From Escherichia coli (GTDB lineage: Bacteria > Pseudomonadota > Gammaproteobacteria > Enterobacterales > Enterobacteriaceae): DNA of 64,000 nt. Below are positions 54,001 through 57,000 of this stretch, in pieces. Made by a program: the position numbers. Every line of letters starts with the position of its first letter. Within the stretch, counting starts at the first letter, position 1. The DNA lies in assembly GCF_050920415.1 (NCBI RefSeq), contig NZ_CP169310.1; one strand, written 5' to 3'.

Positions 54001-57000
54001 TTCCGACTTACCGGCCCCGACCGTGCCGTGCAGACAGAAGTTCTGGATTTCGGAATCCCGGATAATCGGCAGGTCGCCAATCCGGATATCGGAGTCCTTG
54101 CCGTCTTTTTTCAGCATCCGGGCAACGTCCTTCGGGTTGTCTGTCAGCTGACGACCACCTGTGACTTCATTTTCGCTCTGTTGTTTACCCTGACGCCCCA
54201 GAATCCAGGAGACAACAAAGAAGGTGATCAGGCAGATAACCAGGGCCACAATAGTGGCCAGAACGAATGCGGACCATAGCTGCTCACCGCACCAGATCAT
54301 ATATTTATCATGCAGTACCTGAGCCGCGTTCATCCGGAAGGTTTTGCCGTAATACTGGATCTCATAGACCGGCTGGGACCTGATTAAATCCCGCATGCCT
54401 TCCAGCGTGGTGCACCACCAGTAAATACAGCCGTTCACAAACGTCTGCCAGCTTAGTTTTACCCATAAAACCAGACCAACGAGGATCCAGAAAAAAATGA
54501 ACAGGCAGTAAAGCATGATATTGGCGATCTGGCTGAACATGCGGATACGCATGGACGCAATCTGACCGCCCTGGGTCATATCCTTTGCGTTAAAACTCAT
54601 GATGAAACTCCGGGAAAGTCAGGAACAGAGCAGAAAAGAGCGGTGTGGAATGCATTCACAGAACAAACCATGTATACCCTGTATACCGGTGGTGATAGCC
54701 GCCTGCTGGCCTGCCGGAAGAAACTTTTTCCAGCACGATATCAGTCAGGCGCAATATTTCAGACCAGTCACTCTCGTGTGAATACTGGATCTGAACAAAA
54801 AGGCGTACCCGTTCACGATAATCCAGAGCCGTGCCCGGTTCATAAAAGTGGCCACTGTCAGGAGATACACGGGACGTTTTATTGATGAGCTCGTATTTAT
54901 CGGCATGAGTCTGTGACGACAGAGACCAGGTAATATTTTCTTCCTGCTCACCATCAATACGGCTATTCCCGGGCGTCCAGGCAATTTCCTGCGCACTGGT
55001 CACGATGATCTGTCTGGAGACTTCTGCCAGCTTTTTGGGAGTACAGAATACCCGGGCCAGCACACACAGGGACAACAAATTACAGCGGCCCTCTTCCGGC
55101 TTAAGCGGATTGCTCCCGGATTTCTCAGGAAAAGATATTTTTGTCAGTATTTCAGTTAATTCCTTATACCTGAGAGAATTAATAAAGTACATGACAAGCA
55201 TCATGAGAAACAATATAACAATAAGCCCTCCGATAACCACTAAAAGGTCAGTATCAATATTATTGCTGTACAGATAGTCTTTAGTTGTCGCTGTATTATC
55301 CTGTATCACCGGGGGGATTCAGTTACAGGCTTCTCAGTAAATTGATTATTCTCACCAACATATTCAGCGATATTGTCTGATGTCATAATGACTTTCTCCG
55401 GAAGATCCCGGCTTCGCCGGCAACACTTCACGGTCGCACAAAGAATTTGCACAACCGTTCAGTGTTCTCATATTTATTTCGGAAACGCCGGGAAGCGACA
55501 AAATTTATTTTGTTACTTCCCGGGGTTAGACAACGAGCAACGCGAGGCGTCAGTCAGGAGGCCAGTCATCCCAGCCACGGATAATATTCTCTTGACGCTA
55601 TTTAGTTTTATCCCTAAAGATCAGCTATTAACCGTCATAAGCATCCATATCTGGTCAACATCTGATGAATCCTTATCAACAGCGACTGGTTCAATTGAAA
55701 GCGACCATATTGTTTTTCCATTAACAACACAGGAAAAGTCATCAAAGAAATAACCTCTTTTTATATGCTCATCCAGCTTTTTCGTTTGAAATCTATACGC
55801 AACTTTTTGTTCTTCAAAACTCTGATAAGAATCCCTGAATGCTTCATATGCTCCGAAATGAGCATACAATCCCATATCACGAAAGGCTTTAGCAACTTTA
55901 TAGCCTGATTCAATAAAAGTATCAGCCGTAAATTTCTTAATTCGACCTTGCCCTCCGCTTATAATACATAAGTTTTCAACATTCACCGATGGTGCTGCAA
56001 CCTGTTTATCAACAAACAAAGCTGGAGTATATAAAAAATAAGTATCAGAACCTCCAGTGCGGGTGATATAATTATAATTCTCATTATGAATATTATACAT
56101 TATCTGATCGGACAAAAATTCTCTTACATGTTTATTTTTATATTTATATAAAGCTCCTTCAGATACTTCTGTACTTATGCATCCCTGAATGAGAAAACAA
56201 ATTAATAACACTATACATTTTCTGATTAACACGACTACCCCCTTAATGCCATAATAGGGAATTTATATGAGACTGGTACAGCTTTATCCAGTCTCATCCT
56301 AAATTACAATATATTAGCAATTGATTTGGCCAACTGGTCTTCGAGAACAGGTTTCGCCTCTTCAAATTTCAGGTTAACCTTGTTCGCATTTGAGACCACC
56401 CGGGTCTGGTATTTATGCTGGTTACCCGTTTCAGTACTGGTCTGAATTTTCTCACCTGATGTGCCCTGACGAAGAGCGGCAATATTATCCGTTGTCACCG
56501 TTGCCTTAGTACGCTCTGCAATCTGCACATCCGTGATCATGGTATAGTTCACATCTTCCACCATTGCATCTGCAGCCATACCCACCAGACCAGCAGCAAG
56601 GCCTACACCGAGTGTGGCACCGGCAGAATTGGAGTTATATCCGGTAATACCGGCACCTAATGCTGCACCAACAGCTGCGCCTTCATAACCACGGTTCAGC
56701 CATCCCTGAGACTCCCGCAGATCCATCTTATCGGCCTTCAGCACATTCGCCTGAATCCTGTAGTAGGCTTTATCCGGAGAAGTCACCACCTGATACCCTT
56801 TTTCTTTCACAGCATCAGCAATTTTGCCCTGCAGCCCACTCATATCTTTATCAGACGTGTTTTTGATCTGCAGAAATACCGTGCGTTCGCTGGCGGGTTC
56901 AAGCCAGATGGTTTCACTCATCTGAGTTTTGACTTCAAGATTACGCTTCTTGATTGCTGTGCTCATCGCACCACACCCTGAAAGGACCAGAGTGGAACTG

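Follow-up and report, generated by a model that had tools for sequence, protein, structure and literature searches.

A lipoprotein gene of the traT-traD interval in an F-like Escherichia coli plasmid, candidate member of the exclusion cluster

We analysed a 64,000-nucleotide stretch of an F-like Escherichia coli plasmid of the IncFIA/FIB type (RefSeq assembly GCF_050920415.1, contig NZ_CP169310.1), called the window throughout, and in particular the interval between the transfer genes traT and traD. The gap between these genes was 1,703 bp long and held two open reading frames (ORFs), both co-directional with tra. A preliminary description of the same DNA had reported them within 54656-56232, as a lipoprotein gene (203 amino acids (aa), lipobox LIQGC) and a gene for a single-pass membrane protein (217 aa); they were recovered at 55621-56232 and at 54656-55309, both with a GTG start. 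The first, here named gene X, is predicted to encode an outer-membrane lipoprotein of an orphan family and is the main subject of this work. The second is the larger part of a frameshifted gene, here named ORF-B. The features of the interval and its borders are listed below. Plasmid loci used for comparison are given by handles such as L002 and L011.

57586-60429, minus strand: traG (ORF call)
57067-57570, minus strand: traS-type entry-exclusion gene, 167 aa, directly 5′ of traT
56304-57035, minus strand: traT, intact, surface-exclusion lipoprotein of 243 aa (NCBIfam NF010291 and the label of the Prokaryotic Genome Annotation Pipeline (PGAP) on an identical plasmid)
55577-56310, minus strand: X cassette, 734 bp (alignment with L002 and blastn junctions)
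56267-56297, minus strand: hairpin after the traT stop, inside the X cassette (RNA fold)
55621-56232, minus strand: gene X, 203 aa, GTG start, predicted outer-membrane lipoprotein, orphan family
55560-55576, minus strand: small G+C-rich hairpin GGCTGG-GATGA-CTGGCC (alignment with L002)
55488-55523, minus strand: large hairpin CCGGGAAG...CTTCCCGG with conserved flanks (RNA fold)
54613-55404, minus strand: ORF-B cassette, 792 bp (blastn junctions against L011, L013, L022 and L025)
54656-55386, minus strand: ORF-B, frameshifted 245-aa gene (N-terminal fragment 55306-55386, remainder 54656-55309)
52456-54600, minus strand: traD, coupling protein, 3′ boundary of the interval (ORF call and RefSeq annotation)

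The traT product scored 532.8 bits against NCBIfam NF010291, for which the cut-off is 445. When the window was aligned with the common F-like plasmid L002, homology ended in the last traT codons and restarted at 55576. Most F-like plasmids have about 19 bp where the window has the 734-bp X cassette, as seen in both the alignment and the blastn junctions. Downstream of this cassette the window was ordinary backbone, with the two hairpins and the whole of ORF-B in the same position as in L002 and at 92% nucleotide identity to it. The homology breaks were located at 56311 and 55576 for the X cassette and at 55405 and 54612 for the ORF-B cassette. The window segment 54613-55404 was missing from the X-bearing F-type plasmids L011, L025, L013, L022 and pO86A1, and the F plasmid had neither module, its traT-traD gap being 252 bp. 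Since homology to other plasmids broke independently at each of them, X and ORF-B were taken to be separate modules.

Four states of the interval were found across plasmids: neither module, ORF-B only (about 1,790 plasmids), X only (about 79) and both together (only 7). The window has the rarest of these. Matches to the interval were detected by megablast in 4,130 plasmid records, of which only 7 covered the whole of it. The interval was identical to that of several 215-225 kb IncFIA/FIB E. coli plasmids (for example pCFSAN004180G), and the sources of the identical plasmids were cattle, food and human stool. The interval is a mosaic that arose through two separate insertions or deletions of unrelated pieces. 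It had been described as a foreign two-gene cargo, a view contradicted by the independent cassette boundaries and by the hairpin between the ORFs, which belongs to the backbone and also occurs in plasmids without X. The whole 1.7 kb had also been called AT-rich, which applied only to X and the first part of ORF-B (31-37% G+C), while most of ORF-B had 45-52% G+C. X itself had about 33% G+C against about 50% for tra and occurred in about 2% of F-like plasmids, and its portrayal as foreign in composition was upheld. Comparison of the interval across plasmids, which the preliminary description had proposed, found X to be rare and conserved and ORF-B to be common backbone. The expectation that traD closely follows traT was correct for F but failed in roughly half of the F-like plasmids.

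Intact ORF-B, as found in L002, encodes 245 aa with one transmembrane segment and is annotated as a hypothetical protein (for example WP_074481271.1). No match to it was found in Pfam, NCBIfam, PADLOC or PHROGs. At least 80% of the gene was carried by 1,794 plasmids; it was absent from F and from most X-bearing plasmids, and its presence was independent of X. ORF-B is an already known, routine gene of the F-like backbone. In the window, 1 bp is missing at about 55316/55317 (GAAT-CCCCCC, compared with GAATACCCCCC in L002), and a second base has been lost near the 3′ end according to the same alignment. The true ATG at 55386 now opens a fragment of 26 codons, the first 28 codons are out of frame, and the remaining 217-aa ORF starts at a GTG that lacks a Shine-Dalgarno sequence. 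RefSeq annotates remnants of 178 aa in the window's plasmid and of 136 aa in the sister plasmid CP057155. Homopolymer slippage or phase variation was considered as the source of the frameshift and rejected, as the C-run is of equal length in both copies and the lost base is the preceding A. The window copy is probably non-functional after the frameshift. Thus, the 217-aa membrane ORF of the preliminary description exists as an open frame but not as an intact gene, and it represents the damaged form of a backbone gene that is common and routinely annotated (about 1,800 plasmids), rather than cargo.

The large hairpin (-28.2 kcal/mol, z-score -4.5) was present nearly identically in L002, which is without X. 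The small hairpin is the first backbone element after the X cassette, and in plasmids without X the small and large hairpins come directly after traT. Both belong to the common F-like backbone and not to the X cassette. The third hairpin, inside the X cassette, folded at -23.7 kcal/mol (z-score -3.1; 0 of 200 shuffles folded as well). Without a T-run, it does not qualify as a canonical intrinsic terminator; the same sequence was found in L011. It is followed by AGGGGG and then by the GTG of X. A repeated hairpin element between the two ORFs had been reported, and it was indeed present at 55488-55523, with a related copy at about 43030-43110. This second copy of the large-hairpin element (about 43020-43110) lies just 3′ of a DUF2726 gene, downstream of finO and hha. 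The copies (43020-43110 and 55470-55560) share the flanks GACGCCT(T)CGCGTTGCTC(A)GTTGTCyAACCCCGG ... CCCGGCGTTTC and differ in the stem interior. In L009/L010 a DUF2726 gene was observed inside the traT-traD interval, beside an ORF-B homologue, an arrangement that hints at a shared history.

The X protein opens with MLIRKCIVLLICFLIQGC. Its signal peptide (residues 1-17) has the lipoprotein layout, in which a positively charged n-region precedes a hydrophobic h-region, and ends at a lipobox Cys (IQG-C18, read as MLIRKCIVLLICFLIQG-C18), with Ile at position +2. The designation of X as a lipoprotein proved valid for the whole family, a signal peptide and a lipobox Cys being present in 17 of 17 members. 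The lipobox Cys, C89 and C168 were invariant across these members, as were Q77, L88, G94 and W176. Position +2 was occupied by Ile, Val, Ala, Ser or Thr in all 17 and never by Asp, and distant members had canonical lipoboxes of the form L(S/A/T/I/F)(G/S)C. Outer-membrane (Lol) sorting is predicted for X because its residue +2 is Ile and not Asp. Proteins 90% identical to X carry the name “Lipoprotein” in UniProt. An AlphaFold2 (AF2) model, with a predicted local distance difference test score (pLDDT) of 85.7, had a single N-terminal helix followed by a soluble alpha/beta domain. These features predict an exported protein that is lipidated at Cys18 and sorted to the outer membrane, with a disulfide between Cys89 and Cys168 as a stabilising bond.

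RefSeq lists the product of X as WP_001355324.1 (also as WP_001473214.1 in E. coli records), with 159 aa from an ATG at 56100 and without the signal peptide. The N-terminal 44 residues missing from this product were conserved in full-length homologues, and the start of X was therefore placed at the GTG at 56232. The AGGGGG ahead of this codon is a good Shine-Dalgarno ribosome-binding site, and on the Salmonella plasmid pSE49-2444 PGAP annotates the homologue at its full 203 aa. The short RefSeq call conceals the lipoprotein nature of X, and our analysis corrects this annotation. Pairwise ratios of nonsynonymous to synonymous substitution (dN/dS) ranged between 0.11 and 0.27 across seven lineages, with dS reaching saturation, and the full-length reading frame was retained in every lineage. 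X is a real gene under purifying selection. It lies 71 bp 3′ of traT on the same strand, and no sigma-70-like site was seen 5′ of it on the minus strand. Given this spacing, the shared strand and the lack of a promoter-like site, X is most likely co-transcribed with traS and traT, and co-transcription with traT would be the simplest reading.

Searches for relatives of X returned few proteins. A word-indexed search of 5.8 billion proteins recovered 9 clusters, and an exhaustive profile search of 1.84 billion representatives recovered 15, with lengths of 81-213 aa; the complete family members were all 180-218 aa long. X had no match in Pfam, NCBIfam, PADLOC or PHROGs. The family profile matched no sequence in the PDB, and the fold had no meaningful match in the PDB (structure library of April 2026) or the AFDB. 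No profile match to TraT (NF010291, PF05818) was obtained. When the X family was aligned with the TraT alignment using hhalign, only the signal peptide was aligned, with a probability of 16%, and the TraT fold (a decameric “cork” with an alpha-helical barrel anchor) was not found in X. The TraS profile (PF10624) gave no Pfam match to X either, and the polytopic inner-membrane layout of TraS was likewise not seen. Databases know X only as a “hypothetical protein” or “lipoprotein”, and literature searches found no publication describing X or a gene between traT and traD.

X was detected by tblastn in 86 of 72,556 plasmids, 81 of them typed as conjugative. The hosts were Escherichia (73), Salmonella (4), Shigella (3), Klebsiella (2), Providencia (2) and Photobacterium (2). 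Among 5,426 complete E. coli genomes X was found in 93, plasmid-borne in all and chromosomal in none. Large IncFIA/FIB plasmids of the virulence type were frequent among the carriers; their hosts were E. coli, Shigella and E. albertii, isolated from cattle, food and human stool. A scan of a genome collection for further relatives yielded a single locus, on a plasmid of Klebsiella pneumoniae ATCC 13883.

In all seven close X lineages (50-100% identity), X was co-directional within the traG-traD interval and lay beside traS or traT. It directly adjoined traT in six of the seven, on either side. The gene orders were as follows.

Window, L011/L012, L025 and pO86A1: traS-traT-X
L013 and L022 (Salmonella pSE49-2444): traT-X, traS absent
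L014 (Salmonella): traS-X-traT, with the X ATG overlapping the traS stop (ATGA)
L009/L010: traG-X-traT, X 7 bp after traG, no traS
Providencia group: ancestral traS-X-traT, with traS decayed in L005-8 and L023 and traT deleted in L003

X was intact throughout the Providencia group despite the loss of traS or traT. A traS pseudogene remnant was located at L005:7623-8001, its 3′ end still encoding ...SGFDVGGNAYGFYHRK, and similar remnants were present in the other plasmids with decayed traS (L005-8, L023). In L003 a deletion (L003:8615-8894) took traT together with the 5′ part of a traR/dksA-type gene. Replacement of exclusion genes by X was considered for both cases. That X replaces TraS in L005 was weakened by the decayed remnant still present, and that X replaces TraT in L003 was weakened by the extent of the deletion into traR. 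Only L009/L010 truly hold X in the traS slot, without room for traS. In L022 (3240-3608, minus strand) and L013 (6740-7051, minus strand), plasmids of the Salmonella pSE49-2444 type, the traS slot between traG and traT instead held an unrelated ORF on the reverse strand, about 103-122 aa long and encoding MYNKIRSYNF...GANAIINLRYTSG.... The traG of L022 was seemingly split into ORFs of 365 and 568 aa.

Between distant backbones X was 50-65% identical, compared with about 37% for TraG, about 44% for TraD and 71-80% for TraT. TraS, with 26-43% identity and a dN/dS of about 0.5, was fast-evolving, unlike X. Compositionally, X stayed at 31-35% G+C in every backbone. As judged from these comparisons, the evolutionary behaviour of X resembles that of TraT and not that of TraS. 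The distant relatives of X were found in the following settings, and a further distant homologue (P0012) lay on a 1-kb contig that was uninformative for gene context.

F-like plasmid: one relative, next to traM and a LuxR-type gene
Photobacterium MOBH megaplasmids: two relatives
Near fimbrial genes: one relative
Next to hns: one relative

The traS-type gene of the window (38% G+C) is annotated as a hypothetical protein and had no NCBIfam match. Its product has a hydrophobic N-terminal half and the C-terminal motif NPxTGxxMxGGxDxxGNxxG. The motif recurred in TraS of L011 and of L014, both Pfam-positive, and in that of Providencia L003, for which no Pfam match was recorded. Alleles 95% identical to the window traS are annotated as surface or entry exclusion proteins. 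The motif may be useful as a marker of the fast-evolving traS family.

The textbook exclusion set of F-like plasmids consists of traS and traT. X resembles TraT in having a lipoprotein signal peptide with a lipobox, a predicted outer-membrane location and a length in the range of about 200-245 aa. It is encoded in the same cluster on the same strand, directly adjacent to traT, and like TraT it shows far more conservation between distant F-like backbones than TraG and TraD do. TraT is a surface-exclusion outer-membrane lipoprotein that plasmids co-opted from a larger family of lipoproteins (PMC11733297), and X likewise belongs to a wider lipoprotein family with members outside tra operons. Unlike TraT, X is rare, whereas TraT is nearly universal, and it has two conserved cysteines besides that of the lipobox. 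The two proteins share no sequence homology past the signal peptide, and X has no fold similarity to PDB chains.

A precedent for a lipoprotein that is not homologous to TraT and nevertheless fills an exclusion role is Sfx, recognised as such only recently. This outer-membrane lipoprotein of IncC and IncA plasmids, unrelated to TraT, provides surface exclusion in F-type (MPF_F) mating and is also found as an orphan gene on other mobile elements (PMC11493245). Sfx is effective in the recipient alone, and TraN of the donor determines its specificity (Rivard et al. 2024, PMC11493245). Unlike X, Sfx is about 286 aa long and is encoded beside traN and acaB rather than in the traG-traD interval. The two were compared through the X profile search, which returned only the proteins of 81-213 aa mentioned above, a result that argues against detectable homology between them. 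The function of Sfx is demonstrated, whereas that of X is proposed by analogy.

X also shares features with TraS (PF10624). It occupies the same slot, right after traG, in L009/L010, where traS is absent; both genes have a low G+C content, and both would be non-essential genes acting on the recipient side, if the role proposed for X is right. TraS differs in that it is polytopic, resides in the inner membrane and carries a C-terminal NPxxG...GxDxxGN motif, while X, according to its model, consists of a single cleavable signal peptide followed by a soluble alpha/beta domain. TraS also evolves fast and X is conserved. Llp of phage T5 and Cor of phages phi80 and N15 are small outer-membrane lipoproteins of mobile elements that protect the carrier by inactivating a receptor. 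At about 60-80 aa, they are much smaller than X, which also had no PHROG match.

Of the two modules of the interval, one holds the truncated ORF-B; for the other we suggest, at a probability of about 0.45, that X forms a facultative third member of the exclusion cluster and acts in the envelope. The suggestion is based on the location of X inside the traG-traD cluster in every close relative, and its exclusion function is inferred by analogy with TraT and Sfx. An envelope or exclusion role had been proposed in the preliminary description for both ORFs from their placement. For X this was strengthened by the adjacency across seven lineages; it did not hold for ORF-B. The X cassette would have been inserted between the end of traT and the backbone hairpins that follow it. 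X would then be made from the traS-traT transcript, exported and lipidated at Cys18, and sorted to the outer membrane, where the Cys89-Cys168 disulfide would stabilise it. Its site of action would be the envelope of the cell that carries the plasmid (the recipient), where it would most plausibly hinder incoming F-type donors in forming or stabilising mating pairs. The ORF-B module is a backbone gene frameshifted in the window lineage. X is a possible new member of the plasmid exclusion-cluster lipoproteins. A more specific proposal, which we regard as tentative and less probable, is that X is a third, unrecognised F-type exclusion factor with a new fold and its own specificity, for example masking the receptor of a particular TraN class.

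Several observations weigh against an exclusion role for X. About 98% of F-like plasmids do without it. A traS at least 95% identical to that of the window was found in 430 plasmids, only 7 of which hold X, and an association of X with one traS allele was accordingly rejected. No link of X to any exclusion factor was found by homology, domain or fold in Pfam, NCBIfam, PADLOC, PHROG, PDB or AFDB. Distant relatives (21-34% identity) lie outside the exclusion cluster, so a tie to exclusion does not extend to the entire X family. The placement could reflect permissiveness, as non-essential genes occupy the traG-traD interval and insertions (ORF-B, traR, DUF2726) are tolerated there, or it could have arisen by hitch-hiking with the well-conserved traT through homologous recombination. 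The Gln at lipobox position -2, found in the close subfamily of X, is unusual; it is permitted by the PROSITE lipobox pattern (PS51257-type).

Among the alternatives, the one that survives best, although we consider it doubtful, is that X is an envelope cargo lipoprotein unrelated to conjugation, serving in receptor masking against phages or colicins, in serum resistance or in host interaction. It would reside in traG-traD only because insertions are tolerated there and expression alongside traT is constitutive. The distant homologues, which sit in other mobile or chromosomal settings and not in tra operons, are consistent with this, as are the frequent occurrence on large virulence-type IncFIA/FIB plasmids and a G+C content (31-35%) that is low whatever the backbone and points to a foreign origin. 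The interval and its surroundings also house other non-transfer genes, namely ORF-B, DUF2726 and, nearby, vapBC. TraT itself interferes with the OmpA-specific phage K3, and the phage lipoproteins Llp and Cor block FhuA. However, all seven close lineages keep X in the exclusion cluster despite its shuffling relative to traT and its passage between widely differing backbones, X stays intact where traS or traT has decayed, and X had no PADLOC or PHROG match. The cargo explanation also overlaps mechanistically with an exclusion role, since receptor masking fits both.

It is improbable that X is an accessory partner of TraT, aiding its assembly, specificity or stability in the outer membrane. X stands directly beside traT in six of seven lineages, on either side, and both proteins are better conserved than TraG and TraD across backbones, which is consistent with joint movement. 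However, TraT of F and that of pKpQIL form decamers with no partner of this kind (PMC11733297). Since most TraT proteins function in the absence of X, with about 98% of F-like plasmids having traT alone, and since Providencia L003 keeps an intact X after the loss of traT, a partner role is less likely than the exclusion and cargo roles. A decaying or spurious ORF without function, for which one could cite the 159-aa RefSeq product without a family and a possible silencing of the AT-rich gene by H-NS, is very hard to reconcile with the low dN/dS, the frame kept in all lineages, the invariant lipobox and cysteines and the pLDDT of the AF2 model. Least credible is a single foreign two-gene operon acquired together: the ORFs are adjacent, co-directional, both predicted to encode envelope proteins and both absent from F, but their boundaries and distributions are independent, their G+C contents differ, ORF-B is frameshifted and backbone hairpins lie between them.

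Some other features of the window were recorded. A vapB-vapC toxin-antitoxin pair at 51819-52447 (plus strand) lies between traD and traI in the opposite orientation. The same arrangement was found in F and in Salmonella pSE49-2444, so the pair is ordinary backbone. A repeat of 36-53 nt, GGGG(N)CCG...TTCCCACG(T/C)TAAG, was present in direct and inverted copies and resembles the terminal inverted repeats of the Tn3 family. Its copies, at the positions listed next, suggest that the cargo part of the window contains several ends or remnants of transposons.

13837-13872: Tn3-like repeat copy
15076-15111: Tn3-like repeat copy
32474-32526: Tn3-like repeat copy
36238-36290: Tn3-like repeat copy
36611-36658: Tn3-like repeat copy
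36821-36868: Tn3-like repeat copy

A perfect inverted repeat of 519 nt (26329-26847 and 31956-32474), with arms 5.1 kb apart, is possibly a composite transposon or an invertible segment. A direct duplication of about 0.9 kb (4742-5617 and 9554-10424), 82-89% identical, is spaced by 4.8 kb.

Exclusion genes decide which plasmids enter the carrier cell and so shape the spread and coexistence of resistance and virulence plasmids. X, a conserved lipoprotein embedded in the transfer operon, is a candidate for an additional exclusion or envelope-protection function in F-like plasmids. If it were a third exclusion factor, it could preserve the protection of a plasmid that has lost traS or traT, and it would be a mobile exclusion module spreading from one F-like backbone to another, even a distant one.

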